64,000 nucleotides of DNA from Ruditapes philippinarum (Eukaryota): positions 124,001 through 188,000 of the forward strand of contig NW_026860290.1 of assembly GCF_026571515.1 (NCBI RefSeq), read 5' to 3'. How positions within the stretch are numbered: position 1 is the stretch's first letter; each line of letters begins with the position of its first letter. A program made the position numbers and the translations under genes. Positions 1-33,100 of this stretch are shown here, piece after piece. The notes beneath the pieces were generated by a model. It was given only the letters and a program-made list of their open reading frames with translations, was not told the DNA's origin and did not search any database.

Positions 1-171
1 ATATTTTTGTCTATCATTCATAAAATTGCCTTAGCTACAAATTTGGCCTTTGATTTATAGTGTTCTCTCAAGTACAATAAGATGTCTGTGATTTATATTG
101 ATGGGTCTGCTGAAAAAACATCATGCCTTTTAGTTCTATCTCTGCAAATAATGTTTTACATACTTTTTCAG

Positions 172-1218
172 TGGAGAAGAACCCGATGGTGATAGCACCC
201 AGTGCAGCACATCTAGCAACAATGGTAACGGAATTTCAAATGATAGTGTTGAAATGAGGTATGTATTTATATTTATATGTATGGTCATGATCTTGATATG
301 TGTTTGTTGTTTTTGTTATTGTTTATTTATTTATTTATTTATCTATTTATTCATATACCGACACACCTATCCATTGAACTACCCAGCCACTTACCTCTCA
401 TTTATTGATTTATTTACATTATAATAAACTTTATTATCAGTTTCACATGATAACAAAAAATAATGTTTGAAAAATATTGACAAGTTATACGTTTGAATCA
501 GTTATTTGGATCAATAACAGTAACACATAAAACATGGTTTCATCAGTCAAACAATAGATGAACATAATTCAACTTTATCAACCCTTTGAAGTGGTAACAG
601 AGATAATTTATAAAACATAGCAAGCCAAACCAAAGAAAAGCATATTAAGTTGATAAATAGATTTGTCTTCAATGAAGAAAGGCATAAAAATGTGACAATG
701 TTTATCCTCTATTTTCAACGCATTTATGAAATTTTCATAATTATAACTATTTTAGGCTTAGTAACATGATGTTTTTATAAGATGGGAAAATTGAAAATCA
801 ATTATATTGTTGGGTATATTGTTTTCCCGGTGTGAATCACTTCTGTATTTTCATGCCATATGGGCGTTTTTCCGAAGAGAAAGTTCGGGGGAAAAAGTAA
901 GACACACAAAAGGCACCGTTTGTTGTGTTTTCGCCATTCCTCATCTTGAAAATAGACAGAAAGAAGGAAAAGTGTGACTACTTAGTTTTCGTTTTTGTAC
1001 TTGCAGGGCGGAGAGTGTAAAGTAGGAAAACATGAAAATGTGAAGATTCGTTGTGTTTTCGACTTTACAACTTTTCGACCCAATAGAACTTCCTCCCTGC
1101 CTAAAAAAAAACAAACAAATGAAAACATGCTTGTTTGGCATGTCATAAATATGTCATCGTCAACTTTTGATGCATTTTTTTCCATAGCAAATAATTGTTT
1201 CGTTTTAAAGAATATGAG

Positions 1219-1260
<42 letters not shown>

Positions 1261-4200
1261 TATATGCCTCAAATCAGTTGATAACAAATTTTAATAAGAG
1301 GTTCGATTCGACGTAAGTGTTCTTACATGTATGTTTGGACTTTCAATATAAGCTCGTCGGGAATCATTTGATGCAAAACATGTGTATTCTGTATAAGAAC
1401 GTTTACTTGTGCCAAAATATTTAAACAGTGAAAAAGGTTTTATCAAATAATGTGGTGTTACTTCGTTCGTTAATTTATCGAGTACATTTTGGTTCAACCG
1501 TAATTTTATCGTTATAATTTTGTTTTCTCCCTTACTAATCATGTCATTTCAGAACTTTAAACGCAGGACTGAGTGCTCCGGTTGAGACGAGTCGTCAACC
1601 TATGGATGACTATCATGGTGCTTGCAATAAGTAAGTTACGATATAAATTGTTTATTTTCAAAATAGCTTCATTTTATAGTTTCATGGACTTTAGTTATAA
1701 TAACATGTAAGTAATTAACCCAGTATTCATTTCCATAGTCGTAGCAAATGACAGGCTCACATATAGGAGAAATACACTAAAAGTTTTTTGACTATTGTAA
1801 TATTGTTTTCTGCTAGCAATGTTATCAATTATTCACAGAGAGGTAAAAGGAGACCAACAACAAAATTTGTAGATTATTGCACAATATAAGTCACTTTTAT
1901 GGATTTATTTGAAAATAATTTCAAATGGCGAGCATGGCGATCGAAAGTGTGAGCCCTGATTTATACATGTACAAGTATTAATGATTCAGATAGAATGGCA
2001 AACATCAACATCAATATTATTTATTTTTTCTTATTATAAAATAAATTAAATGTAAAATGATACGGGCATATATAATATATACTCTAATCACCTATTAGAT
2101 TTCTTTCTACTTGTAAGATAATAAATATTTTATTAAATTAATATGTGTTACGAACTCGTCACCATTAAATAATCTTCGGTAAACATGCGTTCTCGTTACT
2201 TATACACTTCATCGTCGGAACTCACAGGTATTAATTTGAGTGATTTCGCTGAACTATCAAGTGCATAGGTAACGAATATGTATGGGTTACCAAGGATGTA
2301 GTTCAGCTAAATCAGTACTTGTGAGCTCTGACGATGCATAAAATATCCTTTATCTCCCATTAATGTCAAACCCCTCGTGGGGACGTAGACATGACTTTAG
2401 ACTAGTCACTTCAGAGAAAGATATGAGGTACAAGGGAATCCCGGAACCAGTCCCTTACTCTTATTGAATTGACCCCTTGGTTCTTTTACATGCCCAGTGT
2501 ATAGCACTGATACATGCGAGGGTTACCTTGATTTCTTAACAGTACACAGCATGTGGTCTAACCAACTGAGCTATCGCGCCACCTTGTCCACTCCTGACTT
2601 GAGTTAATCCCGGGGCTCGAAATGAAAGCTAGACTTGTATACCATTAGACCTTTAAAAATTTAATTCACTTTGAAATGCGAACGTAATATAAAGTGATTT
2701 ACAGTATCTATATGCTGTCATGACGTCAATGTTTTGATTTGTTTTCAGTGAAAACCCGTCTAGTGAAATATAGCCAAGGTAACTTGTATCGTATTATTTT
2801 AGGTTTCAACAAATTCTTATTCACCTCCCGAAAAACTATGTAATCAGTGTTTTATAAACTATGTCATAAGTTTATAAACAAAAATATACATGTATAATTA
2901 TTATTCTCGTACTTGCCAGTTTAATCACAAAGCGACTTTGTTTATATGATATACAGCTTAATTCTTGCACATACAACCTTTCAAGTCTGTTTCTTCTAAA
3001 AATAATGTCTACAATTAAATTTCAAACTCAAAAGTGTATTAATGTTTACTGTATTCAATCAGAATTATTTAAACTGATATTATTTTACTGTTGGTCGACT
3101 TGATTGGGCTACTCCAGGTACTTTTTCTGAACCTTTTTTTATCTTCTAAATTCAATAAGTTGAAATTGTAAAGCTTCTAAAAGTAAGACATTTTAGCATG
3201 CCTTAGTAAACCAGTATGTCTGTGTCCATCAATAGGTGAGCACAGTTTCAACGCGCTTTATTTAAGTTTCAAAATCATCACCTGAGCAAGTGCTGCTTAA
3301 TTCATCATAAAAAGCCAATGTATTACAACTATTATTGTCCGTGGAAACAGCTGGTTTGACTCTTATTTATTCTATTGACTGACCGGCTGTATGCAATTAA
3401 TCGGAATTATGTAATTACTATGTAATAGCCCTAAATCATACTGAAGTGTCTTCGAAATGAAGTTGCTTCATACATAAATACTCCACTGGACAACGTTAAC
3501 TGTAGAATTAAAGTGACACCATGCTCATTTTTTCATTGTCAAGTTGAGCTTAATAAACAATATACATATATATTTCAAAAGATTGACTGTTATAATGGTG
3601 ATTACCCAACAGTTGATATTTGAAAATATTTAGGATAAAATTATTATTTAAATATGCATCTGCCTAAAATACAAAAAGACTACTTTTTTACTGCATGTAA
3701 ATTTCCATGGAAATTTGTAGAGATTAGTATTTTACTTTCACCTCTTTACTCACTACATATATTTGGATGGATATATGTCACTATCAAAATAACCCCTTTT
3801 TTAAAAAAAAAAGATAAAACAGATCTGATAATAACGTCGAACATTGCTTTAACATACCTCGGTAGTATACTCATTTCAATGATTAATTTCCTCATCAAGT
3901 GTTGTTATTCAAATATAAAGTATTATATATTTCAAATAAACATGTAATATGATTTTCTCACGGGTATCAAATTAGCGTTTCTGTTCTGCTTTAATACAGT
4001 ACTAACTTGCTATCATTTAACATACACGTTATTAATCATGATTGACCTAAGATATGAAATGAGATCATGACATTGTTAATGAACATAATTATTATGTGTT
4101 CATTTGTTTATAAAAAAATTTCTAAGAATTACTGTTAGGTACAGTAATTCAAAATTTTCATTCCAAATTTCAGCATATTTGACCATGAACTTATTTTATT

Positions 4201-4664
4201 TAGCTTTTTTTATTAAAAAAAAACACTTTCATTATGGAAGGTAATAACAAACCATCAAAAAATTTGAATGGATGATTTTGTTACGTATGCGATAAATATA
4301 TACCATGATATGACATGCCTTTATATAGCAAATAGTACAATTCATATAAATATCCATTCTTAACCTCTAAATTTCAATCAACATATGTTTTCAAGAAATA
4401 CTTGATGAGAATATCCTAATGACGCCTTTATATTGTTTGTTTTAACATTTTTCTATGGAAAATGTTCCTTTTGTAGACCAATTTACTCTATCATTTATTT
4501 AATTTTTGTTTATCAACAGTCCCATTTACAAAGATGCGAGTGCTAATCCGGTGGCGTATACAGATGCGAGTGGTGCTTATATTATTTTAGAGACCAATTT
4601 AGATAAACCACCGTTATCACCACCACCAGTATACAAGAAAAATCCGAAAAATGCATGGGAATAA
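172..4664 (+). CDS. 3' (cytoplasmic-tail) exons of the inverted paralog of the minus-strand Sushi/HYR/GCC receptor; 5' part lies left of the window
   Basis: AG/GT-bounded phase-2 exons 172-258 (GEEPDGDSTQCSTSSNNGNGISNDSVEM) and 1553-1630 (TLNAGLSAPVETSRQPMDDYHGACN), and terminal exon 4520-4664 (PIYKDASANPVAYTDASGAYIILETNLDKPPLSPPPVYKKNPKNAWE*). Optional exon 2749-2778. They align in reverse complement with exons 31385-31477, 29989-30066, 24127-24262 and 29360-29386. Frames are open and exon length differences are multiples of 3. Confidence 0.8.
2345..2580 (-). mobile_element. tRNA-derived SINE, internally deleted (Meta-SINE-like core), left arm only
   Basis: Minus strand begins ggcgcgatagctcagttggttaga (tRNA/A-box head). 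Core tcttttacatgcccagtgtatagcactgatac resembles the SINE at 53005-53288. Absent at the matching right-arm site (~29537). Confidence 0.6.
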
Positions 4665-5459
4665 CATCTGTATCCGATAAACGTTTAGCAAAGTACTCAC
4701 TGTTTATTCGAGCACCTACATGATCGTACCGGAAGTACTAGAAGTCAACTTCTATATCAATTTTGAATGCATAGAAGACATTCAGTGATATTTTGATAAC
4801 TCTGTGATATTTAAATTTATGTTGTTAATGTTAAATTTTATTTTGTTATTTTACATATTCTGGACAAACGTGATACTGATTTCTTACTAGTACATACATG
4901 TACACATTTTATCATAAAAGCAGTATATAAATTAAATGTCATCACTTTTTCATAAATTGTTCGTTTACAAATGCTAATTATCATATGTTTTAAATATGTA
5001 TTTATATATTTTTATATTTTTGTTGGTATCTTAACAATATTACATGTACTAACATACTAGTAAAGTAAGTTATACTACAAGCAGAAAAATAGTGCCCCTG
5101 TTACTAAATGTGTACAATGTATATTTTACTTCTAATGCTATATTATAACATATTGGATTTTTGTGAACCAAGCTTAATATTTGACTATTTAAAGGCTGCG
5201 CATTTATTATTTGTAAAAAACATGCATGTTATCTACAAAATTTTTTTACAATTTGTATGTGTCTATATATTGTTCACTGATAGTTAGCTTGACTATACGA
5301 AGTTTTTTTAGATCACATTCAATTCAGTGTCGTCGTTCGTTAAAGATTATTTTGCATGAAACGATATCTAACTATATTGTCTTTCTTACGTAACGAATGT
5401 ACTTCAAACATAAAAGTGTGCCTCTTACCATCACAAACATCAAATACTAGAATTATCCA

Positions 5460-6870
5460 TTGAAAAATATTACTATTTTGCACATTTTATATGTGTGTAC
5501 TTTTATAATTTTAAGACTTATCTTCCCCTTGATGATAGTATATCATACAAAATTGTTATTATTTTACACAAATATACATGTGTACTGTTACGAGCCAGGC
5601 GTAACGAGAAAGAAAAGCCAGCAACAAACTTGTAACAATAACAAATTTATTACAGAAAAATTATTAAAGAAAAATTAAATAACAAATTATCTTTACAAAT
5701 ACCTGAAGTCCAAATAAAAATGTAAATTACAAATGTCTAGTCTGATCCTGGAATGATCCATTTTGAATAGCACAGTTAAATCCAAGTTAAATCCAAGAAC
5801 ACTTTAGAATAAATTCCCACAATATAATCCACAAGAATAATTTTAACTATTTTAAAATAATCCAAGCTCTAATATATCACTTTATATCCAAGTTGAATAA
5901 TACTCCAAATATATTGATGACTTAAAAAGTAACTGATGACTTAAAAGATCACTGATGACTTAAAAGGTAATACGAAAGAAAAATGTCTCCTATATATATT
6001 AAGCTAAGAAGTTTCTAGAATAGTCTTCCATTTTCTACAGTAATCATAATCTAGCAACTTCAACAATAAAGATCATTCCGGAGATTTCTATCTAATTATA
6101 ATGCATGAGTTTTCTACAACAGTTAAGAAAGTTCTAGTACAAACATGTAGTTTATGTTCTAAAAAAAGAACAATGATTATATTGGAAATACCAACTGGTC
6201 AGACATAAACTATATACATGTAATATGTTGCATACATAACAGTACTTTATGATTTTCTTGAGTTATCTACCCCTTGACGGTTGTATTTCACACAAAATTG
6301 TTATTATTTTACACAAACATGCAAGTGTACTGTTATAATTTCAAAAGTAATCTAACCCTTGAAGATAATATTTCATACAAATGGTTATTAATTTACACGT
6401 TTTACATGTATTCTATTATACCTTTAAGAGTTATCTAATCCTTGAAGTAAGCATTTCCTTAAAAAAAATATAATTTCAAGAGTTATCTACCCCTTAAATA
6501 TAGTATTTTATACAAATTGTTATTCATTTACACAAATATACATGCATTGGGTACTTTAATAATTTAAAGAGTTATTTACACCTTGAAGGTAGTATTTCAT
6601 AGAAAAGTGTTACAATTTTACATGTACTTTTATGATTTGAAGAGTTATCTATCCTTACCCTTTGAAGTTAGTATTCACTAGAAAATTGTTACTTTTTTAC
6701 ACAAATCTTACATGTATTTTTATGATTTCAAGAGTTATCTACCCTTTGAAGATAGTATTCACTAGTAAATTGTTACTTTTTACACAAATCTTACATATAC
6801 ATTTATAATTTCAAGAGTTATCTATCCATTTGAAGAAAATGTTACATACAAATTTGTTATAAATATGCGT
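5460..6870. repeat. Degenerate ~80-bp AT-rich minisatellite, interrupted by a solo LTR
   Basis: Recurring unit ataatttcaagagttatctaccccttgaagatagtatttcatacaaaattgttattattttacacaaatatacatg. Mirrored at 22680-23350. Confidence 0.85.
5586..6241 (-). mobile_element. Solo LTR (656 bp, Gypsy-like), left arm only
   Basis: Termini TGTTA...TAACA. 4-bp TSD GTAC at 5582-5585 and 6242-6245. The right arm (~23228-23245) shows the empty site. A TATA-like run (~5991) precedes AATAAA (5646-5651) on the minus strand. Confidence 0.8.
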
Positions 6871-8005
6871 GTGTATTTAAGTAATTTAAACACTAAATCA
6901 TACTTATTGTTGTCAAAATGTCACCTAATAAGGGTCATAAATCTAGCACCTGTATTTCAGGAATTATGCCTTTAGAATCTGTTGTGTCTAAAATGATTAT
7001 ATTTGATTATTGTTGTAAAGATTTTATGACTTTTAGGAATTTTCGTTTAACCTGACATAGTTGGTATTAGTCTTCTCACACACCACATATTTCATTTTCT
7101 GTTTAAAGAAACAATCCATATCAACTTTCATGTTGTGTATTATTTTTTTACTCAATGAAGAAATTTCAGTCAATGTCTAATAAACATATATTTATGCGAT
7201 TAATATAATGTGGCCAACTCAATTTTTATTTCCTGATATTAATTACATATTTCTTATATTTTTCCATATTTCTAATTTCTTTTATCATCCAGAACTAGAA
7301 TATTTGAGTATGTCTTCTCCGGCACTTTCAGTGAATTTTGATGCATGTTTGATGTCTTTAACGCATTAAAAGAAAGCATTTTATTGAAATTTTACCATGT
7401 GACGCATTGAGAGGAATCGTATGTACATGTTTTTGTTTTTTGTTGTTTATTTTTATTAAAACTAAACTATCCAACGTGTTCCTTTCGTTTTGTTTGTTTT
7501 TTCTCTTAATAGTATGTTAAAAGGTGCTCCAATGAGGTACACTAAAATCAATTATGAAAAATGAAATAAAATGTTTTCATAAATCAAATGGGGCACTCTA
7601 AACAGAAAATAGGCATAATTTGTACTCAGAATAGATTTGGCAAAACAGTCAGAGGGAAGGCGAAGTAATTTTTTTAATCTTTGGCCGACCTTTAGGTTTG
7701 AGCTTGACTTTGAAAGAAACATCCTGTTCTTTTTGCGCTGTGTGCATCATCTTTTTATGACGAACCTTTTGTTCAAAGTGCTTTTAGTGCGTCTGCGAAA
7801 GAAGAGCTCGACGCCATTTTTATCCATCGCTTTTGCTCCACCGCCGACAGTTATGGCGAATATGAAGTGTCCTTAATTAAACCGAATCAGAAATGTTCAC
7901 ATTCCTTAGTATTATTTTACACGATCGTATACAATTAGGCATTGGCAGAGTGACAAAATTATTTCTTGAAAAGGTAAACTCATTTATTATTTCAAGAAAA
8001 AAGTT

Positions 8006-11000
8006 CTATTTTACACCATATCCGATTTCACAACCACCAGTGCACATAAGTTCTGCACCAGTTGTGAAAGTGGCGTCTGCTGCTAAAAATAGACATGCCA
8101 AACCTATTTCACGTGGCTCTCCAAATCGTCCAAGTTGCTAAATAAAAATAAAATGAAAATAACCTATTAGAATTCATATTCATAATTCGATTACAATATA
8201 ACTTTTAGCAAACTAAAAAAGTTATGTTATAAAAAAACAACATACTTATCTTTAACCACTGAAATTCAGACAGTTTCAATTTTCTAGGCTTACCCTAATG
8301 TTCAAACTTTACTTGTAAAAGTTTATAAAGCATTTGAACTAAGATCAGTTTTTTTAAGTGAAAACAACCTATTTTGATAGCATCGTCGTGGACCACCTTA
8401 ATTTTTCTAATCTGACGCGATAGCACGTTGCCAATGTGGCAATTGTTCAATTAAAATAGTGCGTAGCAACCAATAAGCTGCTGAGTATGAAACTGCATTA
8501 TTTTGATTAAAGAAAAAGAAAACAAAAGGTAACAAAATATAAAGTGGCTTAGAACTTTGTTTGACACAGTTATAGTCACACGGTGACCTACTGGTGCAGG
8601 AAGACCTCATAAGCAACTTTTTGAATGCATTATTTCAGACACTCAGTGAGTACTTTGGTGAACCACCGACCTTCCGCAAATCAACCGGATAGCTTTCACA
8701 AATGAAAGGTCCTGACGAGACCTTAATCACTCCGCTACTGAGTCTTTTGTAATTTATTTGTTACGTACCGACCAATTTTTCACTAATTTCCCCTTTTCTC
8801 CTTCTTGTTCTAACCAACTTTGAAGAAGTGGTGTATTTATTGGTCCTGGACATACCCTTTACAAATTGAAAATAATTTTGTTCATCGTTATCATCATCAT
8901 CATTCCACCATTAATATTAACATCAACAATACCAACAGCAGCATCTACAGCATCATCATAATTACCATCAACATTACCATCATAATCACAATCATCACCA
9001 CTACCATCCTCCTCATCATCATCATCAACACCACCTTCGTCTCCAACATTATCAACATCAACAACACCATCATCAGCAGCACAACCATCATCATCATCAC
9101 CATCAGTATCATCATCACAACCACTATCATCATCATTATCATTAAATTTTCTATTTTTTGTTTCTCCGACCTTATATTCTCTGTAAAGCTGCCAACACAT
9201 CCACTTTATTTCTATTTCCTTTAACATAAGTTTACGAGCCTGTCCAATGACATACATGTATGTATCTAGATCAGGCATCGTCTGACTTCACTTTACATGA
9301 TGGCATGCCAAAATTCTGTTTGGATTGTCCTGTTATGCTCAAAGATTTATAAAAAAATATATATTGATCAATAACATACATATATTAGCCGTCTGGTAAG
9401 CTCGATAATTAGAGCGTTAGACTATGAATCGGGCGACCCGGGTTCGATTCGCGGACGACACAGGTCGTTGTGATTGATCATGAAATCCTTTCTACAGTCA
9501 TTCGCACTGCAGCTCCGCTTTTGCGTGTACAAAAGTTTCAGTTCATTGCGAGAGTGTAGGCAACTAGTACTGGTAAATTGCTCGACAGCCTACCAAGAAA
9601 TGATGAAGTGGCAAAACTGTGCTCTGGTTAATTCATCGTGGCTTACTGCTGTGATCCGAAGTGAAAACTGCCAACACCACCACAAATAAAATGTGTACTT
9701 ACGCATTGACTCTGACACCATTCTTGGCTTCGTCTATAGCCAACGCTTTTGACAACGAGATAATAGCACCCTTAAAAGAGAAGAAAGCAACATGAAATGG
9801 TAATGCGTTTATGAGGATGTGTCTTTAATTCACCTTGAACAAAGTACTTTTAGATTTCATGTATATAAATTTATTATGTTCTTTCTATTTGAAAGACCCT
9901 TATTTTATTAAACTTGCAAAAAGGCAACAATAGGATTATTAAATGTCTTCAATTACATTATTATATTTATCTGTCTAAACAAGTATGAACTTTACGCAAG
10001 GCACAGTTTTAAGATATTTAGAATTACTAGTGTCTCTATTAATAAATCCATTTCGTGCCATTTGAAAATGCGAACGAAAAAGCACATGGGGTAAAATCCC
10101 TGTCCATTAAAGCTTTGAAGTTTCCATTTAATTGCAGGAATAAATAAAAATTGATACAAAACTAATTATCGATATAAAGTCGATGGATACCTTTGATGAA
10201 CAATAAGTTGGTGTTTCTGCCTGTGCATTTGTCCCACTAAAACTCGACATGTTAACTATACTGCCTTTAGTCTTCCGAAGATGAGGTAGAGCATACTTAA
10301 AGACGATATCCAATGACATGTCATAGACATTGAACAATAAAAAAGTTATAGTGAAGCTAAACACGAAAATATGTTCAGATCGAGCAATAATACAAAGTAC
10401 GCATAATGTAGCGATTGGGATTATGTCAGGAAATAATCATGGTCGGTTCTAAGAAGAATTGTAAAGGATAGAATGTCTCTTTTTTCTTAACAAATATGAA
10501 TAATGAAATGTTCCGGAAGAAAATATAACGTTACTTTTTAAAGATATTTTTATCGTTTCTTTCATAAAGGTTTTTATGAAGTGTTTCTTTTAAAAAGAAA
10601 TAACTAGAGACAGCAGATATACAGCTTTACTCATTGTAATGGTCGAAGCAGGAAACAGTTGCAACATAGAATGGTTCAGTAATTTAACATGTATGAATAT
10701 TGTGCGCCTTTACCTTAACATAAAATATACAAACATTTTTCTTTTATACAGATATTTCAGAGGTATTCCTTTTTTAAAATTCACAAAATATTTTTAAACT
10801 ACAAGCAGCAGAGACATTTCTATATAATATTTTCACGACTTTTTTACAAAGCAAAATATATTTTAAAATGTAAGCTCGATGAGTATAATTGTAAGGTATT
10901 TGTAAACATTTCATTACTTACCTTACTCATTGCAAACATGCTTACGACGTTAATATTAAGGATTTGTCGGAAACTGTCAACAGTTAGGTTGTCAATCAGA

Positions 11001-14000
11001 TGACTGCCATGATCTAAAACAAGAACTATCCTTACATTTTTATTTTAGAACTTTCCTTTACATATTTTTAGAATGGCAAGAACTTTCCTTTCTACTTTAT
11101 TTTAGAATGGTCAATGCGACTGTCAGACTTCAGGTAGTAATCTTAAAATTGCCAATGAAAATTCTTCTTAAAGTTAGTTCTTCCCTGTAAATTTTACAGG
11201 AAGTAAAACTGATTTTAGATCTCTACCGCCAAAATAACAACAAATATTGCTGTTCAACCAATACAATAAATATGTCAGATTGCTACCCATATAAAAACCT
11301 TATATCAACAAAGTCTTTGAATGACCTGAAAGAAATAGTTTTATCACAACCCCGTGCCAATTTTACGACTCCGTAAATATGGTATTGCACGGATGTGCAT
11401 ATATTTTGACGTGACGTCAGTAGCGTTATACAAATAGTGTAAAGAGCGCTAAATCTTAGCGTTATACAATAGGCGCGTCAATGAAAAATGACTCATTTCA
11501 TTTTAAACGGTCTTTATTTTGGGTATATGATAAATAGAATATTAAATTCGTGTAAGTTCATAACTGAATTTATTGCACTCGTTAAATTAAATAATATCAT
11601 GCTCGCCAGAGGCTCGCATACTATAATTTTATTCAACTCGTGCAATAAATTTAGTAAGGCTAACACTCATTCAATATCTTCTATATATAATATATATTTT
11701 TGATGTTTTGATTTTTTGTTGTTCTTGTGGTTAATTAAGATAACTTGTTTGTTTGTGGATTTTTATAATTTTTTAGGGAATTTGATATACAGTATTACCA
11801 AATTGTTCAAGCACTAAATGTCATCATGAGTGTGCATTCAATATTGTAAATAGTTACATGTATATAATATTTCTTTTAATTTCTTTACCAGTTAAAATTT
11901 AAATGCAAAATTCATTGATTCATTTTTCTCAAGTATCCATAATTATATCAAATGTGTCCATGTACTCCGAAATATATCAGTCTATTATGAGTCCTGTATA
12001 ACAAGTTATTTAATTTCCGATTTACAAAATCAAAAAGCTATTTCTATGGAATGCCTGGTATTTTTCTTTTTTACCAATTTCGTTGGAAACTTAATACATG
12101 CAGTTAAAGGAAATGAACTTATTAAAAGAGTACTATAGAAAATATTTAACATACGCATTCCAACGTCGTTAATAAGGCAATCAATTTTACTGTGCTTCTC
12201 AACCGTCAATTTAATACTGTTCTGTAAAAACACAAGTACACTATACTATATATAATTGGACAGTTATTTTAAGCCATTTCTGACATGAACACATGTACAA
12301 ATTAGTCCATCATTTGTCATTTTAATGCATCTCTGAAAAATACATAATAATTTATTTACCACTTTACAAAAACCTTTTCAACATTCATGACATATTTTAA
12401 AATATGTTGTTTACAGGACATTTCCTTTAAAAGATATAATGGCATATAAATTGAAACCGTCTTAAGAAACCATGACATGCACCAGTCAATTATAAAGAAA
12501 CTTCACTGAGGTCCAAAAGCCTTAAAACGAAAATTTGAATTCTTACATAGATCAACTGCGGCACTTAAAACAGTAAAATGTTTAAAACATTTAAAAATTA
12601 TACTCTGAATAATTTGAAAATTATATTTTAGCCCGAATTCAGTGAAAAGCGTTGTAATGCTTTTCATTTTTGGATTAGAATAATCATTCTGGAAAAAACG
12701 GAGTGAGTGAAGATTACAAGTTATTGGTCTTGACCTACTCAAATGAAACATTAATCTTGAAATATAAATCCAGTCTCTTGATGTCAAAAAAAAACTCAAT
12801 GGAGTTCCTTTTAATTTACAATAATCTGTAAATTCTGTTAATAGTATGACTATATTCAGAAGACTTGTTAATGATATAGTTTTCATAAACTTACCTTTAT
12901 TTCTTCTTCGTTAGTCACATCACAGTGTATATATGAAACATTTCCAGGTCCTGGTAAACTAAGTGTATTTCCAACTTTATCTGAAATGATATTTCTCTTG
13001 ACAACTTTAAACATTTCAATGTACAACAAAAACAGTTTATGCAGTAAGTTTAATTCTTTTTACCAGAAACAGCCAAATAGAAATAAGATATTTTTGTATT
13101 TGTGTATAGAAATTTACATTTTTTTATTAAAATAAAATACGAGGACATTCTGTGAGGATAGGTTCAAAAACTTAATTCATACCAGAAACGAATTACAAAA
13201 ACAAATATGCGTTTCTTGCGAGTTTCGAACTTTTTATGCAGCAAGCAAAATAAATTTAGAAATAAAGCTTTACAAGTTGAAAATTCTATCTTTCACAAAC
13301 CAGAAATAACATCAGTTTCAGTCAAAATGCATATTTTGATTGACCCGTATGTACCGTAAATAGTTCACAGATCTGAGGGCCTCCCAGTCAGCCCTAAATA
13401 TTAAACAAAGCACGGCCTTCGGCTTTTGTCCGTAAAATGTTTGTAGACTGACTGCTCGGTCACTATATATGCTATGCAGTCCGAGATACAGTGTTCTGAT
13501 ATTATACAACCTGTACCGTCACATCAAAATATATGCCAACCAATGACATATAGTTTTAACGGAATCGCAAAAGGATTGACATATCTTATATATAAGATCG
13601 AATCTTCCTCGTGTCCTTTGATAACGACGAGGAAGATATATGCGTTTACAGCTTGGTTGATCAAATATTTATGTATGAGAATTCACATTAAAAAATTACC
13701 GTTTATATCAAACACGACCACTGTTCCTCCGTTTTCGACTGAAAGAAAAAATGAATCACTTCTTTGTTTTTAAAAAAGTCGGAAATAATAGGTAGCTTGT
13801 TATTTCTAATCATAAGGCTATTGCATTAATATATCCAACAAATCTAATTTATACCATAATAATAATAGCAAAGGATCACTTGCCTACAAATTAAACCCAT
13901 AGCAATTCAAATGTTGTTTTTTTTTTAGTTTTTTTTAAACGCCTTGGTTAATTTAGAAACAGTATTGAACTCATTATTATGAATTGATATGACTTTACAA

Positions 14001-14804: not shown

Positions 14805-15179
14805 GGCAGATCTCTGTTTCTTGATTTAGACTATAGAAAAAAAAAGAAATACTGAATCTAAATTAACATAGATTTTTGCTTTTATTTATTATTGTACTTC
14901 CCCGCTTAAAAAAAAATTAAGCCCTTTTACATATATGTTGCGATATACAAAGATGGGAGGGGTATATCGTAATAATATTTCCGTAGTGCTTTAAGTGAGG
15001 CAAAAATACGATGGTGAAAAAATGGCGGATAATTTTTTCCATTTTTAGATGACGTCATCTGAAAAGGACTGTTCGTGTGGTCTATGTGGTAAGCGGCTGG
15101 CAACCAAGTCTCCGGTGGGCTGTCTTGCTTTTTAGACAATCTCGAACATACATTTACTAAAAAAATAGTGAAAAACACA

Positions 15180-21449: not shown

Positions 21450-22679
21450 AACTTTTTTTGAGTTTACCTTTTCAAGATTATTTTGTCACTCTCCCAATGC
21501 CTAATTGTATACCATCGTGTAAAATAATACTAAGGAATGTGCATATTTCTGATTCGGTTTAATTAAGGAAACTTCACGTTGGCCATAGCAGTCGGCGGTG
21601 GAGCAAAAGCGATGGATAAAAATGGCGTCGAGCTCTTCTTTCGCAGAATCACTAAAAGCACTTTGAACAAATGATCGTCATTATAAGATGATGCACACAA
21701 CGCAAAAAAAACAGGATGTTTCTTACAAAATCAAGGTCAAACCTAAGGATCGGCCAAAGGTTAAAAAATTACTTCGTCTTCCTTCCGACTGTTTTGTCAA
21801 CTTTATTCTGAGCTATAACTTTTTTATATAAATTTTGCCTATTTTCTGTTAAGAGAGCCCCAGTTGATTTATGTAAACATTTTATTTTATTTTTCATATT
21901 TGATTTTATCGTACCTCATTGGAGCACCTTTAAAAATACTATAAAGGCAGAAAAATAAAACAAAACGAAAAGAACACCTTTGATAGTTTTGTTGTAATAA
22001 AATAAACAATAAAACCATGTACATACGATTTCTCTCAATGCGTCTCATAGTAAAAATTCAATAAAAATGCTTTCTTCAAATGCGATAAAGACATCAAACA
22101 TGCATCAAAATTCACTAAAAGTGCCGGAGAAGACACACTCAAATATTTAATTCTGGATGATAAAGAAAGACTTAACCAAATTAGAAATATGGTAAAATAT
22201 AAGAAATATGTAATTAATATCAGGAAATTAAAATTGAGTTGTCCACTTATTGTTAATCGCATAAATATATGCCTGAAATTTCTTAATTGAAAACAAAAAA
22301 AAGTTTCTGTTATAATTTATACTTAACATGAACGTTCTGAGGGATTGATTCTTGAAACAGACTGAGATGACTTACTATGTTAGATAAAATGAAAAGTCCT
22401 TTAAGTGATAAAAGAACTTGAGAAGAATAATCATTAAACTATTGATGCCAGTGTTACAGACCTTGACATATGTGATATGAGTGATTCGAAGTAACATCAA
22501 TTACAAAAATAATGAAAAAGTTCTTTTTAAAATATAATCCTTTTAATATGACATTATAGATTCTAAAGGCATAAATACAGGTGCTAAATTCATGATCCTT
22601 GTTAGGTGCAATTTTGACGACAATAAGTATGATTTAGTGTTTAATTTTTTAAAATACAAATGTATATTTGTGCAATTAA

Positions 22680-23350
22680 TAACAAATGTGTATGTAATAT
22701 TTTCTTCAAAGGGATAGATAACTCTTGAAATTATAAAAGTAAACATGAAGATTTGTGTAAATTAGTAACAACTTGTATGAAACACTATTTTTAAGTTGTA
22801 GATAAATATTGAAATTATAAAAGTACATGTGATAATAACAGTTTGTATGAAATACTATATTCAAGGAGAAAATAACTCTTGAAATCATAACAGTACCCAT
22901 GTATATTTATATGAATTAATGACAATTTGTATAAATACTATTTTTAAGGGGTAGATAACTCTTTAAATAATAAAAGTACACGTTAATATTTTTGTAAAAT
23001 AATAACCATTTTGTATAAAATACTATCTTCAACGGCTAGATTACTCTTTAAGTTATAAAAGTATACATGTAAAACGTGTAAAATAATAACCATTTTGTAT
23101 GAAGTATTATTTGCAAGGAGTAAATAACTCTTGAAATTATAATAGTACACATGCATGTTTGTGTAAAATAATAACAATTTTGTGTGAAATTCCACCTTCA
23201 AGGGATAGATAACCCATGTAATCATAAAAGTATACATGTATATTTGTGTAAAATAATAACAAATTTGTATGATATACTATCTTCAAGGGGAGATAACTCT
23301 TAAAATTATAAAAGTACACATATAAAATGTGCAAAATACTAATAATTTTC
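22680..23350. repeat. ~80-bp minisatellite, right-arm copy
   Basis: Reverse complement of the 5460-6870 array without the LTR. Confidence 0.85.
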
Positions 23351-24126
23351 AATGGATAATTCTAGTATTTGATGTTTGTGATGGTAAGAGGCACAAATTC
23401 GTCACGTAAGAAAGACATTATAGTTTAAGATCGTTTTATGCAAAATAATCTTTAACGAACGACGACACTGAATTGAATGTGATCTCAAAAAACTTCGTAT
23501 AGCTAACTATAAGTGAACAATATATAAAAAAAATACAAATTGTAAATAATTTCATAGATAACATGCCTGTCATTAACAAATAATTAATGCGCAGTCTTTA
23601 AATATTCAAATATTAAGCTTGGTTCACAAAAATCCCTCATGTTATAACATATCATTAGAAGTAAAATATACATTGAATACATTTAGTAACAGGGGCACTA
23701 TTTTTCTGCTTGAAGTTTAACTTACTTAACAAGTATGTTAGTACATGTAATATTGTTAAGATACCAACAAAAAATATAACAATATATAAATACATTTTTA
23801 AAACATATGATAATTAGCATTAGTAAACGAACAATTTATGAAGAAGTGATGACATTTAATGTATATACTGCTATTCATGATAAAATGTGTACATGTATTT
23901 ACTTGTGAGCAATTAGTAGCACATTGTCTAGAATATATAAAACAACAAAATAAAATTTAACAATTAAAACACAAATTTGAATATCACAGATTTATCAAAA
24001 TATCACTGAATGTCTTCTATGCATTCAAAATTGATACTGAAGTTGACTTCTAGCACTTCCGGTACAATCATGTTGGCGCTCGAATAAAAAGTGAGTACTT
24101 TGTCTGACGTTTATCGGATACCGATT

Positions 24127-27100
24127 TTATTCCCATGCATTTTTCTTGTATACTGTTTGTGGTGATAACGGTGGTTTATCTAAATTGGTCTCTAAAATAA
24201 TATAAGCACCACTTGCATCTGTATACGCCACCGGATCAGCACGCGCATTTGTGTAAATTGGACTGTTGATAAACAAAAATAAATAAATGATAGACTAAAT
24301 TGGTCTACAAAAGGAACATTTTCCATGGAAAAATGTTAAAACAAACAATATAAAGGCGACATTAGGATATTTTCATCAAGTATGTCTTGAAAGAAAAATG
24401 TTGATTGAATTTTAAGTGGTTAAGAATGGATATTTATATGAATTTGTTATTACGTATGATACTCAATACTGTCACGGATGTAATATAAATCCGTAATACT
24501 GTCAACATAATTATTATATGAAATACCTTCCATAATGAAAGTGTCTGTTTTAAAAGCTGAAATTTGGAATGAAAACGTTGAATGACTGTGCCTAACAGTA
24601 ATTCTAAGTTTATATTTTATAAACATATTTTCATGTTCATTAACAATGTCATGATCTCATTTCATATCTTAGTTCAATCGTGATTAATTAGGTAATAGTT
24701 ATAGTATATAAAACGAGTTAGTTACAGGGTATAACACTGGCTGGGGCGACATCAAGGGGTGTTTCTGCTAAAAAATGGCGAGGCCGTCAGGCCGAGACAA
24801 TTTTTTTGCAGAAACATCCCGATTTTATGTTGTTTTTTTTTGCTACTGGGAATGGTCGTTACCACTGCCCCATTGGAGCCTCTATGAAAAAACTGTATTG
24901 ATATATACAAGGTGCGAAAAAAACTCGACCGATATATAACAGTCGAGTTTTTTTCCTATATGAATCAATGAAAAAACTGTACTGTTATATATCAATACAG
25001 TTTTGAAATGCTCATTGAAGTGTACTGAGTATAATGGGTTAGAAAGAACAAAGAAAAAGCTCACAGCCATGCGATAAATGCATGTTATATGATAGCATTA
25101 AGCTGTGTAGTTAGTAGTCACTTTTATTCTACAGTTGACATTGTCCAGTGGAGTAAGTTTATGTAAGAAGCAACTTCATTTCGAAGACAATTCAGTAAGA
25201 TTTAGGAGCAAACTGAAATGGGCTACTACATAGTAATTATATAATTCCGATAACTTGGCTCAAGCCGGTCAGTGAATAAAATAAATTAATGACTTATTCA
25301 TAAATAGTGGCGCCGGATGTAAAGTGTACCAGTGTTTGGATAGTAATTGGGTTGTGGATAGTTATGATATTTCTCCAGTTTCTTTTGGTAATCTAACGCT
25401 TTACTCCAATTTCATAAATCTTAACAACAGTGCAGCCGAGAGGAAGTCACAATCAGTATATTCAATTAATAATAGAAACAGTTTCCTGTCCATTTGTTTG
25501 CTACTGTGTGGGGATGTTCACCCTTGTCCAGGTCATGAAAATTGTAAGTGATTCAAAACTCTTGACAACCAGTACAACGTTTTTAATAATCGTGGACTCC
25601 TTTTTATACATGTGAATGTAAGAAGTTTACTTCCTTAGTTAGAGGATATTCGTATTCTAGCACATAAATCCAGTGCAGCATGCATAGGTATATCGGAATC
25701 ATGGCTAGATGTATCTGTTTTTGATTCGAAAATTCAAATCCAGAATTATAGTATCATTCGTCGTGACCGAGACAGGCATGGTGACGGAGTTTGCCTTTAC
25801 ATTCGTAGTGACTTAACTTTTAACACTAGAAGCGATCTACAACACGAGAAGCTAGAAGCGACGTGGGCGGAAATCCTTCTTCCTAAAGCTAGACCGATTC
25901 TTGTGGGCATTATTTATCGACCTCCAAAACAGTTGGACTTTATTGGCATTCTTGAAGACTTGTGCAATAGTTCTCCTCATTTTATTGAACATGAAACACT
26001 TATTTTAGGTGATTTTAACATTGATGTTTATAAACAAAGAAATAGGCCAGTGTGTGTTTTATCTTCTGCTTTTAGTACTTTTCTTAATATGTTTCATTTT
26101 AAACATTTATTTAATAAACACACCAGGGTGTGTCATACATCGTCTTCTACTATAGATCTTATTATTGTGTCTGACATAGACAAAATTTCTCAGTCAGGAG
26201 TCTTAAGTACATGTTTTAATGATCATTTTACTATCTATTGTACAGGAAAAGTTACTAAAAATTATGTTGGCAAGCATAACACTATCAAAGCACGTTCAAT
26301 GAAAAATTATAATAATAAGGATGATTTCCAGAAATCTTTACTTGCAGTTGACTGGTCTCCTGTATTATTATGTGACTGTGTATCTGAAGCTTGGAAACTT
26401 TTTAAATCTATTTTTCTAGCTAACTGTTGTTGATTACATTGCTCCTGTTAGGGAAATGCGTATTAAACAACGTACTGAAACATGGATTAGTCCAGAAATT
26501 TTTCAATGTTTAAATGATAGAGATAAAGCTTTTCATTTGTATAGAAAGAATAAAACTGATGAAAATTTTGAGAATTTTAAAACATATAGAAATAGAGCTA
26601 ATGAACTTATTTTTATGGCGAAAAAGAACCATTTTAATAATTCATGTGACAATCATAAAAATGATTCAAAGACCTTATGGAAATCCCTTAAGGAGCTTGG
26701 TCTACCATCTTAAAAGGATAATTCATCTTCTAAGAATAATATTGGATTAAAAATATGTGATGAAATTTGTTTTGATAAACAAAAGGTTGCTGAAGAATTC
26801 AACAATTTTTACTGTAATGTTGCATCAAATCTTACTCCAAAACTATCTCCAGCATTAAACATTTTTGGTAAACAGTTTGTATCTTCTTTTTATTTATCAA
26901 AAAGAATTATAATAATTTTTCTTTTTCATTGATGTCTGAAAAAAGTGTAATAAAGTATTTGAATAACAAATCCACTGGTCTGGATGGTATTCCTTCACGT
27001 TTTGTAAGAGATAGTGCATCTATTATTGCCTTTCCTTTAACAAACATTATAAATTTGTCATTGATACAAGGCACAGTACCAGATGATTTGAAGGCAGCAA

Positions 27101-30100
27101 GAATTGTTCCTCTTTTCAAAAAGAATGATAAAACTGAAGTTGGCAACTACAGGCCTGTTTCCATAGTAAGCATTGTTTCTAAAATTTTTGAAAGGGTTGT
27201 TTATGATCAGATTTATTCCTATCTTAAAGAAATGGACATATTATATAAATTTCAATCAGGATTTAGAGGTGGTTTTTCCACTGACACTTGTCTTACACAT
27301 CTATCTGATTTTATTAGGCTACATATGGATAAAGGTAATCTTGTAGGCATGATTTTAATGGATCTTCAAAAAGCATTTGATACAGTGTACCACTCAATCC
27401 TTTTAATGAAATTAGAAGCCATTGGACTAAGTACTGATGATTTACAATGGTTTAGGTCATATCTGTCTGATAGGCAACAACTTGTTGATGTATCTGGTAC
27501 TTTTTCCTCACATGAAAGGGTTACTTGTGGTGTTCCCAAAGGGTCTATCTTGGGACCATTATTATTTTTAATTTATGTAAATGATATGCAGGCTGTTGTT
27601 AAAAATAAACTTCTTCTTTATGCAGATGATTCTGCTATTCTTGTTACAGGTAAAAATAGGTCATCTATTGAAAAAGAACTGACAGATGAACTACATTCTG
27701 TCAGTCAATGGTTAATTGACAATAAACTTTCCCTTCACTTAGGCAAAACAGAGACAACATTATTTGGTTCTAAACATAGGTAAAAAACAGGTTCATCACT
27801 TCATGTCAGTTGTAAAGGGACTGATATACAGTCAATTTCTAATGTCAAATATCTAGGTGCAACACTTGATCAGTCTCTCTCCTGTGAAGCAATGGCAAGT
27901 TCTATTATTAAAAAGGCCAATGCAAGGTTAAAGTTTCTGTATAGAAAACGTGATCATCTCACATTTCACACTAAAAAACTTCTGGTTATCGCCCTCATCC
28001 AATGTCATTTTGATTATGCATGTTGTTTCTGGTTTCCCGGGGTTACTAAATACTGGAAGGATAAACTCCAAGTCACACAAAATAGATTAATAAGATTTGT
28101 TCTAAATCTTGGTTATAAGTCACATATTGATAATGAACACTTTAAAATTTTAAATTGGCTACCTGTCCAGAAAAGAGTTGATCAAATCATCCTATGTCAT
28201 GTTTTTAAAATAAAACATGGACTTGCCCCGGAATATATGGAGAAAACTTTATTCCATTAGATTCTGTTCATACTTACAGGACCAGGTCAAGTGAAAGTTG
28301 GTGTTATATGCTACCTAAGGTCAAAGGTTTCGGATCAAAGTCTTTTGTTTACAATGGATGTGTATTGTGGAATAAACTACCCTCTTCTATTAGGATGGAA
28401 TCAAAATTGTACAATTTTAAATTATCTGTTAAAAAACATTTACTAAATGGGTAATTTTCTCTTTTAAAGGTGTCTATCCTCTAGTCTTAATATTTATTAT
28501 TTTTATTAATTTATTTTAATTTGAAACTTTTATGTATACTATTGTCTTTCTTCAATTTAAAACTGTGATAAGTCATTTTCATGCATCTCTTTGTCAAAAC
28601 CATCAGTATCTAAGGACCACAATGGAAATAAGAGATTAAGTTCTCTTTCTTGTGTTATCCTTGGTATGATGTTTTTGTTATGGTGCATTTCTTTTACATT
28701 GATATTTGTTTTTATTGTTTTATCATGTATTGGATATGTTTTTACCATGTTATTACTGAATACTGAAATAAATCTATCTATCTATCTAGAGTAAACCAGC
28801 TGTTTCCACGTACGAAAATAGTTGTAATCCATTGCCTTTTTACGATGAATCTAGCAGCACTTGTTCAGATGGTGATTTTGAAACTTTAATAAAGCGCGTT
28901 GAAACTGTGCTCACCTATTGATGGACACAGACATACTTGTTTACTAAGGCATGCTAAAATGTCTTACTTGTAGTAGCTTTACAATTTCAACTTATTGAAT
29001 TTAGAAGATAAAAAAAATTCAGAAAAAAGTACCTGGAGTAGCCCAATCAAGTTCGACCAACAGTAAAAATTTATCAGTTTGAATAATTCTGATTGAATAT
29101 AATAAACATTAATACACTTTTGAGTATGGAATTTAATTATAGACATTATTTTTAGAAGTAACAGGCTTGAAAGGTTGTATATGTAAGAATATAGCTGTAT
29201 AACATATAAACAAAGTCAATGGGTGATTAAACTGGCAAGTATGATAATTATATTCCTTGTTTATAAGCTTATTGCATAGATTATCAAACACTGATTACAT
29301 AGTTTTTCGGGAGGGGAATAAGAATTTGGTGAAACCTAAAATGATAAGTTACAAGTTACTTTGGCTATATTTCAAACATATTTTCACTGAAAACAAATCA
29401 AAACATTGACGTCACATTATATAGATATGTGATTTCAAAGTGAATTAAACTTGTTAAGGTCGTTCATCATAGGTCTATTAGTATACACGTCTAGCTTTCA
29501 ATTCGAGCCCCGGGATTTAATCAAGTCGGGTGAGGACATTTTATGATGGAACTCACGAGTAAAATATTCATTATCTTGTTGGTGGAAGGAAATATAACAG
29601 TACGTTAGTGTATATATTTCATATGCTCTTTTCATTTTACATTTCAGTTATTTTATTATATACTTAAATATAAATACTGTTGATGTTGACGTGTCGCAAT
29701 AGTCGTCATTGTAAATCATTTTGTAAAACTGGCAAATATTGTGCAATTAACTACAAATTTTGTTGTTGTGGTTTTCCTGTTTGTGAATATTTGATAATAT
29801 TGCCAGTGGAAAACAATATAAAAATATTCAAAACACTTTTAGTGTATTTCTCCTATGTGAGCCCTGTCATATGCTACGACTATGGAAATGACAACTGGGT
29901 TAATTACTTACAATTTATTATTACTAAAGTACATGAAATCACAAAATGAAGCTATTTTGTATTTAAAACAATTTATATGTAAACTTACTTATTGTAAGCA
30001 CCATGATAGTCATCCAAATGTTGACGCCTCCTCTCAACCGAGGCATTTAGTTCTTCTTCAAAAGTTCTGAAATGGCATGATTAGTAAGGGAGAAAACAAT

Positions 30101-33100
30101 ATTATGACGAAAAATCACGGTTTAACCAAAAACGGTATGGGTATTTGATAAACTTAGAAACGACGTAATGTGCATCTTATATGATAAAACTTTTTTCATT
30201 AAATTGTACATACAGTAAAGTTAAAATATTTAAGCGCAATTAAACGTGTCTAGACTTGTGTTCTTATACAGCTCAAATATGTTTTGAATTACATAATTCC
30301 CGACGAGCTTATATTTTAAGTTAATACATTAATGTAAGAATACTTACGTCGGACGAAACTTTTTATTGGCATTAGTAACCGCATTGTCGTGATGTGTGTT
30401 GTACATGGTGTTATAAGCATAGGCTGGCTCCACGTTACTGCGGAAAACAAGTGTTACAATTTTTTTCTATTGCTGTGTTATTTCGAGGCATATACAGGGC
30501 TTTTTTTTGTTTTAACTCTCATTTTCTTTAATACGAAACAATTATTAGCTTTGGAAAATACTGCATCGAAAGTTGATGATGGCATACTTATGGCATGTCA
30601 AATGAGCGTGGTTTTCATTTTTGTGTTTGTTTTTTAAGCAGGGAGGTAGTTGGTCGAAAAGTTGTAAGGTCGAAAACACAACAAGTTTTTTTTACCTTTT
30701 TCTGTTTCCGTACTTTCAACTCTTATAGTAATAAATTTCAAGAAGTGAAAGGGCGAAAACACAACAAACAGTGCTTTTGGTATGTTTATCCCCCCCGCCC
30801 AATTTCGCCCATGTGGCACGAATATACTACTATGGAAGTTATTCACATTTGGAAAACAATATATCCTAGAATATAATTAAGTGATTTGGCCTTGTTTTTA
30901 ATATTCCCATATATTCATATAAATTAACGTTCACAATTTACGAAAGTAAGCCTAAATTTACTATTATGAAATATTATAAATGCGTTGAATATAGGAAAAT
31001 AAAATATTGTCACATTTTTATGCCTTTCTTTATTGAATACAGATCTACCTATTAACTAAAAACATTCAGGTACGCTTTTTTTGGTTTTGCTTCCTATGTC
31101 TTCTACGTTATATTTCTCTGTTACCACCAAAGTTTGATAAAGATGAAATATGTACAACTATGCTTTGACTGATGAAAACATATTTGTTGTTGTTTAAAAT
31201 AACAGATACAAATGTTTGGCAAACACTATTTTTTGATAAGATTAAGTTTAATAATGTAAATAAATAAAAAAATAAATAAATGAGTGGATGGGTGGCTGGG
31301 TAATAAATAAGTAAATAAATAAATAAATCAAACACAAAACAACAAACATATTGTAAGATCATGACAGTACATATAAAAGCATACCTCATTTGAAACCTTT
31401 CATTTGAATTTACGTTACCAATGTTGTTAGATGTGTTATACTGGTTGTTATGACCATCGGGTTGTACTCCACTCCCCCTGGAAAATATTTAGATTATTAT
31501 TTGTCGAAATAGCACTCAAAGACAAGATGTTTTTAGCAGACCCAGCAAAATAAATCTAAGACATCATATTGAACTTGAGAAAACACTATAAATCAAAGAC
31601 AATATTTGTAGCAAAGGCAATATTATGAATGAAAGACAAAGCTATTATACCAGAAACTACACGTTTAATCAAAAAGCAACATTACTGTACCAACAAGATA
31701 TTGTACCAGAGGAAACACTATAAATAAAAAACAACATGTTGTAGCAAAAACTACACTACTATAAATCAAAGAAAATATATTGTATTAGCATCATATTATA
31801 AAAAGGCAAAATTATAAAACCAATGCAGCATATTGTACCTAGGACAACACTGTTATTATCGAAGGTTACATCTGAAGCAGGAAAAGCAATATTGTAAATC
31901 AAAGATAACATAATGTACCAGAAACAACACTACAAAACAAATAAAACATATTGTACCAGAGACATTTCTATAAATGAAAAACACGTTGCACAAGAAACAG
32001 CGCCATGAATGAAAGGCGACAAATTGAAGATAAGACAGCACTATTAAACAAAGGCAACATATCTTAGCAGAGACTACAGTTAAACTCAAAGGGAACATTA
32101 TTGTACCAGACACATCACTATGGATAAAAAGTAACATACTGTACCAGAGACAACACAAGAAATGAAAGGCAACATATTGAGGATGTGACAACACTATTTA
32201 TCAAAGGCAACATATTGTACTAGAGAAAACACCATAATGTATAAAGCAAAGGCAACACATTGAACCAGAGGCAACACTATGAATATTGAAGACAGTATAC
32301 AGTAGAAAAGACAACACTATCAATCGAAGGCAAAATATTTAATCAAAGGCAACATATTGTACGAGAGAAAACATTTTTCATCAAAGCAACATATAGTGAC
32401 AAACACTATAAATCAGAGGCAGCATATTGTATCAGAAACAGCACTTTAAATAAAAGGCAACATATTGTATCAGAAACAACACTTTAAATAAAATGCAACA
32501 TATTGTATCAGAAACAGCCCTTTAAATAAAAGGCAACATATTGTATCAGAAACAACACTTTAAATAAAAGGCAATATATTGTACAAGAGACAAAACTATA
32601 AATCAAAGGCAACACATTGTACCAAATACAACATCATTTAATCAAAGACACCATATTGAAACAGAGACAACGCTATCAGTTGAAGCGTAAATATTAAATC
32701 AAAAGCATCATATTGTACTAGACACAACACTATATTTTAAAGGCATACTATTGTGAAAGGGACAACAGTTTAAATTGAAGGATACATATATTAGAGGAGA
32801 CAGAACTATAAATAAAAGGCAACAAATAAAATAAAATGATTTAAAAAGTTTAAGTTCCACAATAGCTATTTGGCATGTCATCTCGTTATTTGCATACTTT
32901 ACATTAGCTTAAATGCTTTGAATAATTAAGTCTTATTGAAATTACATGGTAGACAATGGAACATTTTGTCTTAGCTTCTAACATTACCCCAAATATTTTA
33001 TATTACATTGCTTTTATTTCTTAAAAGCTTTATATTTTGGTACCTTGTTACAGTTTCCTAACAGTTACTGATTAACTATATCGCTGAACCATTATCTGTT

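Follow-up and report, generated by a model that had tools for sequence, protein, structure and literature searches.

Genes at the locus

The window analysed here is a stretch of 64,000 nucleotides of the clam Ruditapes philippinarum (NCBI RefSeq assembly GCF_026571515.1, contig NW_026860290.1, positions 124,001 to 188,000, forward strand), and all coordinates are counted from its first base. It contains two inverted arms, A on the left and B on the right, each with a copy of a transmembrane receptor gene and of an HSD17B14-like enzyme gene. Exons in the window are identical to R. philippinarum RefSeq proteins, and the gene identities and orientations given in a first-pass annotation, made from the sequence alone, were borne out. 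The enzyme model and the models of receptors A and B are all listed by RefSeq on one contig of 362,345 bp. Searches of open-access full text, supplements excluded, returned no paper on the locus; of 163 papers containing at least three of four terms, 15 were listed, and judged by title none of these concerns the family.

An intact HSD17B14-like gene of nine exons occupies the minus strand of the left arm (8006-14804), with exons 1 to 9 at 14804-14717, 13738-13700, 12980-12895, 12221-12155, 11013-10922, 10295-10191, 9770-9703, 8856-8769 and 8137-8006. Its product of 254 amino acids has the same sequence as XP_060607317.1, and alleles of the gene differ by 2 and 7 of the 254 residues. The best match in the PDB was human HSD17B14 (E 9e-62), over the full length and well ahead of other short-chain dehydrogenases/reductases, with the Ser-Tyr-Lys triad aligned, the marks of a full-length enzyme of the HSD17B14 type. 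The right-hand copy, on the plus strand (19735-21450), is a pseudogene covered by contigs of X5 and X9, two DNA-type runs from two samples and two studies. It consists only of exons 7 (19735-19802), 8 (20566-20655) and 9 (from 21318), exons 1 to 6 being absent at two junctions, and is frameshifted by 2 additional nt plus a stop codon in exon 8 and by 2 additional nt at the stop in exon 9. The 13 amino acid differences between the two copies in exons 7 to 9 comprise eight that occur in the pseudogene only, at residues common to all four comparison sequences, two that are found in other alleles of the intact gene, and three that are ambiguous. The exons missing from the right arm are ancestral, as matching residues are carried by the human and Mercenaria proteins.

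Receptor B is encoded on the minus strand (24127-52414) by about 26 coding exons, and the C-terminal part of its approximately 1480 residues is identical to XP_060607329.1. Judged from its sequence, it is a predicted type I membrane protein with an NPxY tail, in which a hydrophobic N-terminus, HYR, sushi, GCC2/3 (ephrin-receptor-like), weak LamG, two EGF and TSP1 modules are accompanied by a transmembrane segment (33367-33484) and a cytoplasmic tail. The gene shows one frameshift of 1 nt in the exon at 36711-36969 and a gap at 45289-45470, which is the sole run of N in the window and lies outside both arms. Of receptor A, on the plus strand, the window contains three exons of the cytoplasmic tail: exon 1 (172-258), in frame, bounded by AG/GT and identical to XP_060607327.1 in 30 of 30 residues, exon 2 (1553-1630) and the last exon (4520-4664), which completes the NPxY motif across the splice and ends in a stop codon. 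A search with this last exon matched three proteins among nine candidates. XP_060607327.1 (600 amino acids) matches all three tail exons exactly and runs on upstream through the transmembrane segment, GCC2/3, TSP1 and EGF into LamG, so that the RefSeq model covers receptor A from LamG to the stop codon. Both receptor genes are split into fragments by RefSeq. The proposal that a second full receptor lies to the left of the window thus holds as far as further exons are concerned; for its full length, about 600 of about 1480 residues are seen. A HMMER search of 1.84 billion representatives with XP_060607327.1 was uninformative, its results being dominated by proteins with EGF and TSP1 repeats.

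The two tails differ in exon content. A tyrosine-rich tail exon of 90 nt is kept in B (30348-30437) and in a third Ruditapes copy, C, on a contig of 60,247 bp; in A only a remnant (1255-1312, plus strand) is found, which lacks the acceptor and most of the exon. Both copies also contain a predicted cassette exon with conserved AG/GT borders (30 nt, 2749-2778, plus strand, in A; 27 nt, 29360-29386, in B); an in-frame stop lies 5 nt from the end of this exon in each. The exon is unused in both RefSeq models, and its inclusion would end the tail short of the NPxY motif. Mercenaria RefSeq isoforms X2 likewise have shortened tails. One NPxY motif is present in each tail and the transmembrane hydropathy is 3.1 in both A and B; a pattern scan of A and B found no immunoreceptor tyrosine-based inhibitory or activation motif (ITIM, ITAM) and no charged residue in the best transmembrane window. 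One X5 contig over 4520-4700, with a depth of about 55 (about five times that of the low-depth contigs), combines letters resembling B with novel ones across the last exon, a hint at family copies beyond A, B and C.

Mirror layout of the arms

Self-BLAST gave minus-strand matches that form a chain between 6/31640 and 10127/19241, and together with the alignments this showed 1-10137 to be the reverse complement of 19228-31646. The first-pass annotation had reported an inverted match of 1-10093 with 19272-31650, still running at the edge; the match does reach base 1. The arms were aligned block-wise, and totals from a global alignment were dropped because it scattered A bases across an element present only in B. 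Over nine aligned blocks, 1032 mismatches in 8320 columns correspond to a divergence of 12.4% (87.6% identity), with values from 8 to 16% depending on the block. Arm A occupies 1-16977 (plus) and runs on to the left of base 1, with its upstream exons deduced from XP_060607327.1. Arm B is mirrored within the window at 18496-31646 (minus), and its homology to A at the protein level reaches at least 41972; the outer limit at 31650 is merely the mirror of the window's left edge. An array of 38-bp tandem repeats at 31550-32830 fills the intron after the transmembrane exon of receptor B, and the left edge of the window is the mirror of the end of this array.

Insertions private to one arm interrupt the match. 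In A, a 656-bp element resembling a solo long terminal repeat (LTR; 5586-6241) has TG...CA ends, a 4-bp GTAC target duplication and a very high copy number (depth 10^4-10^5 in both DNA-type runs), and a second insertion of about 450 bp (2133-2584, minus) is SINE-like (short interspersed nuclear element). In the last receptor B intron, arm B alone carries a frameshifted LINE (long interspersed nuclear element; about 25290-28790, plus) of about 3.5 kb with a TCTA tail, recognized by Pfam matches to endonuclease and reverse transcriptase. The LTR-type and LINE insertions thus agree with the earlier annotation. The SINE label rests on a tRNA-like A-box seen by eye and was unconfirmed by any tool, Rfam giving nothing there.

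The arms match collinearly, as reverse complements, over a long stretch of unique sequence that includes genes, as expected of an inverted segmental duplication, and we hold with high confidence that they are a real one. The first reading, which took the duplication to be old and real on account of the arm-private insertions, is supported; it is an ordinary outcome of gene duplication, in decay.

Inner blocks and the centre

Between the arms, the first-pass annotation placed a spacer of about 9.2 kb holding the 5' half of HSD17B14. Most of this sequence belongs to the left arm. The inner part of the mirror consists of four collinear blocks, since beyond the match described above three further inverted blocks extend the same diagonal, 11089-11323/19199-18969, 11724-11918/18967-18790 and 16708-16977/18767-18496, and leave as unique centre only about 1.5 kb (16978-18495), in which no gene was found and no self-match scored above 23. 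The 5' part of the enzyme gene therefore sits in the left arm and has no counterpart in the right. Divergence in the inner blocks (93 of 666) did not differ from that of the adjoining arm (331 of 2532; Fisher p=0.56). The innermost block scored 313, whereas none of 30 shuffles exceeded 37, and at 93% likeness it is a low-copy sequence, with summed bin depths of 57.5 and 23 in X5 and of 0.59 and 6.0 in X9, where transposons reach 10^4-10^5. The first inner block (11089-11323) also matches two dispersed copies, at 68-77%, compared with 82% across the arms.

The gaps between successive blocks measure 28, 1 and 22 nt in the right arm and, in the same order, 951, 400 and 4789 nt in the left. The 951-nt gap contains HSD exons 5 and 6 and the 4789-nt gap exons 1 to 4; the 400-nt gap, part of which is shared with a high-copy element, may reflect an insertion into A. 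In the right arm, the junction at 19200-19227 accordingly has no counterpart of 10138-11088, and the junction at 18768-18789, bridged by X5 and X9 contigs, has none of 11919-16707. The right arm likely once carried the whole enzyme gene. At 16406-17072, X9 shows a cover of 0.59 compared with 57.5 for X5, which could reflect a deletion, a divergent haplotype at the centre or a filter effect.

Patchy identity between the receptor copies

Non-coding differences between A and B amounted to 273 of 1709 positions at 1-2132, 166 of 2000 at 2585-5586 and 331 of 2532 at 7004-10047. The middle segment was lower than either side (p=6e-13 and 3e-7, respectively), and this lowest divergence is found between the two A-only insertions, a position that fits conversion stopping at large heterologies. 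A tract at 2612-8288 with 9.8% divergence, against 15.0% elsewhere, was matched in 0 of 100 block permutations and is a candidate for gene conversion; its introns are as alike as the untranslated regions (UTRs). In HSD exon 7, A and B showed one difference in 68 bases (p=0.0008 versus the flanks, 0.026 when allowing for selection on one copy).

The proteins are uneven too. Over three ectodomain exons 215 of 217 residues are identical between A and B, although the same exons share only 127 of 216 with Mercenaria; identity falls to 71 of 78 in the EGF exon (Fisher p=0.0016), 139 of 150 in the next three exons and 29 of 56 in tail exons 1 and 2. The pair of Mercenaria receptors agrees in 203 of 217 positions over the three ectodomain exons (p=0.0036). 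Counts of B versus Mercenaria for the transmembrane segment and tail were left out, as these parts do not align. Divergence between the paralogs is thus significantly patchy, and the near-identical ectodomain block, the divergent tail and the low DNA tract point to partial gene conversion between the receptor copies as the likely cause. The suggestion that the paralogs could exchange sequence or invert is supported in its first half by these signs of exchange; inversion by recombination between the arms as they appear in the window is unlikely at 88% identity.

Origin and decay of the duplication

We propose, with a probability of roughly 0.65, that a block composed of the transmembrane HYR/sushi/EGF receptor gene and the HSD17B14-like gene was duplicated in inverted orientation, likely after the split from Mercenaria, that the enzyme copy decayed, and that the receptor tails remained in frame under patchy conversion. 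The duplication likely took in the whole enzyme gene and would have been followed by the private transposon insertions and then by deletions, by which the right-hand enzyme copy, now also frameshifted, likely lost exons 1 to 6. Both receptor tails stayed in frame, with patches likely homogenised by gene conversion, and the frameshifts in the receptors would be sequencing errors. The duplication may have survived because the receptor copies were kept, the enzyme copy being a dispensable passenger. In a neutral simulation of 20,000 runs, the three tail exons and their splice sites stayed intact in 0.7% of runs at the intron indel rate and in 4% at the pseudogene indel rate.

Several observations weigh against parts of this history. 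Both exon-removing junctions could date from the duplication itself, by template switching, rather than from later deletions. The compared blocks were chosen after seeing the data, a choice for which only the block permutation corrects; two 3' UTRs fall within the low tract, and selection on them could have reduced divergence; and the ectodomain comparison is at the protein level only, with a model on the same contig, so that assembly homogenisation may contribute. Without indels, the simulated tail stayed intact in 20% of runs, and the tail survival test therefore depends on the indel rate. The ratio of nonsynonymous to synonymous substitution rates (dN/dS) between the A and B tails was 1.9 (33 nonsynonymous, 5 synonymous; p=0.21, not significant), which gives no sign of purifying selection at the amino acid level; positive selection, considered on the value of 2.46 for exons 1 and 2 (p=0.20), was unsupported. 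The N-terminal 60% of receptor A is not seen, and XP_060607327.1 changes frame at least four times against B in the LamG exon and skips the next exon. Of the RNA runs X21 and X23, about 4% and 6% were covered; outside repeats their depth was flat, unstranded and no more than about 1, and none of the 15 joints shown of 460 is a spliced joint of any gene.

The duplication could thus be real and receptor A nevertheless decaying or 5'-truncated, with selection, the local rate of mutation or polishing of the assembly as the source of the patchiness, a reading that we regard as unlikely. Besides the frame switches at the start of XP_060607327.1 and the dN/dS above 1, it would account for the tail exon lost from A, for the larger distance of A than of B from copy C in tail exons 1 and 2 (21 of 47 versus 33 of 48 identical) and for the fact that none of the three matches to the last exon of A is transcript-derived. 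However, the matched stretches between the frame switches are free of substitutions by eye, which resembles long-read consensus error more than decay, possible as the latter is. B shows the same kind of break and is also split by RefSeq, and the following 550 residues of XP_060607327.1 are open. Divergent tails also distinguish B from C and the two Mercenaria receptors from each other, and the introns of the low tract are no less alike than its UTRs. Alternatively, the arms could represent both haplotypes of a single locus, or a pair of unlinked copies, that the assembler placed together in inverted orientation. The species is very heterozygous (3.7-4% by k-mers, as given in PMC9803972), the RefSeq models and contig are probably not independent of the window's assembly, and X9 nearly lacks cover at the inner edge of A. 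Four of 24 listed runs were compared with 4400-24399, X1 to X4 being left out as a possible source sample, and none of the 16 contig pieces shown of 62,477 bridges the joint of left arm and centre or the exon 5-6 junction. Yet a divergence of 8-16%, with 29 of 56 residues shared in two tail exons, contrasts with that of the HSD alleles, and no N lies between the arms. A 568-nt contig of X5 over 18533-19099 (9 other letters, 1 gap) bridges the exon 1-4 junction with 235 and 310 nt on its two sides, as does a 766-nt contig of X9 over 18209-18974 (4 other letters, no gap) with 559 and 185 nt, which also joins the centre to the right arm. X5 and X9 each carry left-arm HSD sequence too, and both arms are hence present in other individuals. 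In X5, one contig that belongs to the left arm only has a depth of 21.3 and one from the right arm a depth of 19, compared with 9-14 on the other six shown; this is a weak hint of two copies of each arm, contig depth not being equal to copy number and the runs possibly being pools. Because contigs of two other samples span junctions specific to the right arm, a mis-join of haplotigs is unlikely, and we consider an assembly origin of the mirror very improbable.

The remaining alternatives concern its age. The receptor family has no name and is molluscan, with identities over the query region of 60% in Mercenaria, 32% in Solemya, 28% in Babylonia and 27% in Physella. Mercenaria mercenaria has two receptor loci (1235 of 1320 identical) and two intact, close HSD copies (236 of 257), all on one contig of 74,526,284 bp, and each pair is closer within itself than to Ruditapes. 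In the trees (7 rows for the receptor, 14 for HSD, all kept), the Ruditapes receptor copies A, B and C formed one clade (100/100, with the bootstrap unsettled and only this clade starred) and the two Mercenaria HSD copies grouped in a separate clade (98/96). The mirror block could accordingly predate the split of Ruditapes and Mercenaria and have undergone concerted evolution in each lineage, within-species pairs being closer than between-species ones as in the primate palindromes described in PMC8327919; conversion in Ruditapes would then have slowed and one enzyme copy died. We find this quite improbable. Independent duplication would yield the same trees as an older palindrome under concerted evolution, and the arms are far below 99% identity; proximity of Mercenaria accession numbers was rejected as unreliable evidence of synteny. 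The HSD17B14-like family also duplicates readily, with several further genes on the same Mercenaria chromosome and five on one Mya chromosome, and given this multi-copy habit independent duplication in Ruditapes and Mercenaria is the simplest account. Little credence is likewise given to a bolder version, an ancient venerid palindrome of receptor and HSD older than the split, in which conversion would keep the ectodomains alike while the tails diverge through exon loss, stop-carrying cassette exons and fast substitution. The products would be invertebrate paired receptors, with the same ligand and different signal or trafficking, encoded in an autosomal inverted repeat.

With a post-split duplication and a decaying enzyme copy as the preferred reading, the locus would serve as a worked example of an ageing inverted duplicate in a transposon-rich bivalve genome, combining central deletions, passenger loss, private insertions and conversion patches. 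It also illustrates how sequence that looks like a spacer may in fact belong to one arm and be absent from the other. Should the Mercenaria genes prove to be mirrored in the same way, the locus would gain in importance as a mollusc palindrome of long standing, maintained under concerted evolution.

Repeats and neighbouring sequence

Other repeats accompany the arms. An array of 84-bp tandem repeats is found in both (6242-6860 in A, 22634-23349 in B). Both arms also carry, in HSD intron 7, a SINE-like element (9380-9690 and 19800-20110; related copies at 14401-14492 and 56463-56596), which is therefore older than the duplication, and a long microsatellite of (CAT)n type with unequal lengths (8880-9142 and 20340-20540). 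Upstream of the intact HSD gene, 15072-16405 consists of one or more very high-copy repeats with an internal direct repeat of 120 nt (15163-15282/15802-15919), abundant in RNA run X21 too. About 2.2 kb upstream of the start codon of receptor B lies a 1.16-kb foldback (54604-55760), in which 13 nt at the centre separate the arms (420 nt, 93%; 137 nt, 96%). It is probably an element of the foldback or miniature inverted-repeat transposable element type. At 62430-64000, plus-strand segments that look like cysteine-rich exons (about 62436-62615, 63180-63355 and from 63924) indicate another gene leaving the right edge; the one open reading frame scanned there had no Pfam match. Rfam returned two sub-threshold matches, taken as chance.

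Comparison with known systems

The human HSD17B14 gene has nine exons, and the clam protein shares with its human relative the full-length match and the aligned triad. It differs in having NDVG for NNAG and in being one of several clam HSD17B14-like paralogs. The human enzyme is now described as an L-fucose dehydrogenase (PMC11293516). For the receptor, RefSeq calls copy A 'SVEP1-like', and sushi, EGF and a pentraxin/LamG-type module, weak in the clam, are indeed shared with SVEP1/Polydom. SVEP1, however, is presented in PMC5389596 as a secreted protein of 3555 residues with a vWA domain and no transmembrane segment. The clam receptor, at about 1480 residues, has a transmembrane segment, a tail and TSP1, and no vWA match was found in the scanned exon open reading frames or in the full-length Mercenaria receptor protein; lacking vWA and possessing a membrane segment that SVEP1 does not have, it bears this name as a domain label only.

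The arms resemble the palindromes of the primate X chromosome, as characterized in PMC8327919, in their inverted, gene-bearing layout, their short spacer, the concentration of rearrangement and deletion at the centre and in arms that are closer within a species than copies are between species. Such palindromes have arms at least 99% identical by definition, in contrast to the 87.6% found here, and the clam locus differs further in its private transposons, in homogenisation that is only patchy and in that nothing links it to a sex chromosome. The closest parallel for the receptors is SIGLEC11/SIGLEC16, inverted neighbours with homogenised ectodomain exons and divergent cytoplasmic ends according to PMC5701461. 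The known part of receptor A shows the same combination of a near-identical ectodomain and a divergent tail. The SIGLEC genes are, as described there, arranged head-to-head with opposite signalling, ITIM versus adaptor-coupled, whereas the clam receptors lie tail-to-tail and show no opposing pair of ITIM and ITAM or charged transmembrane segment.

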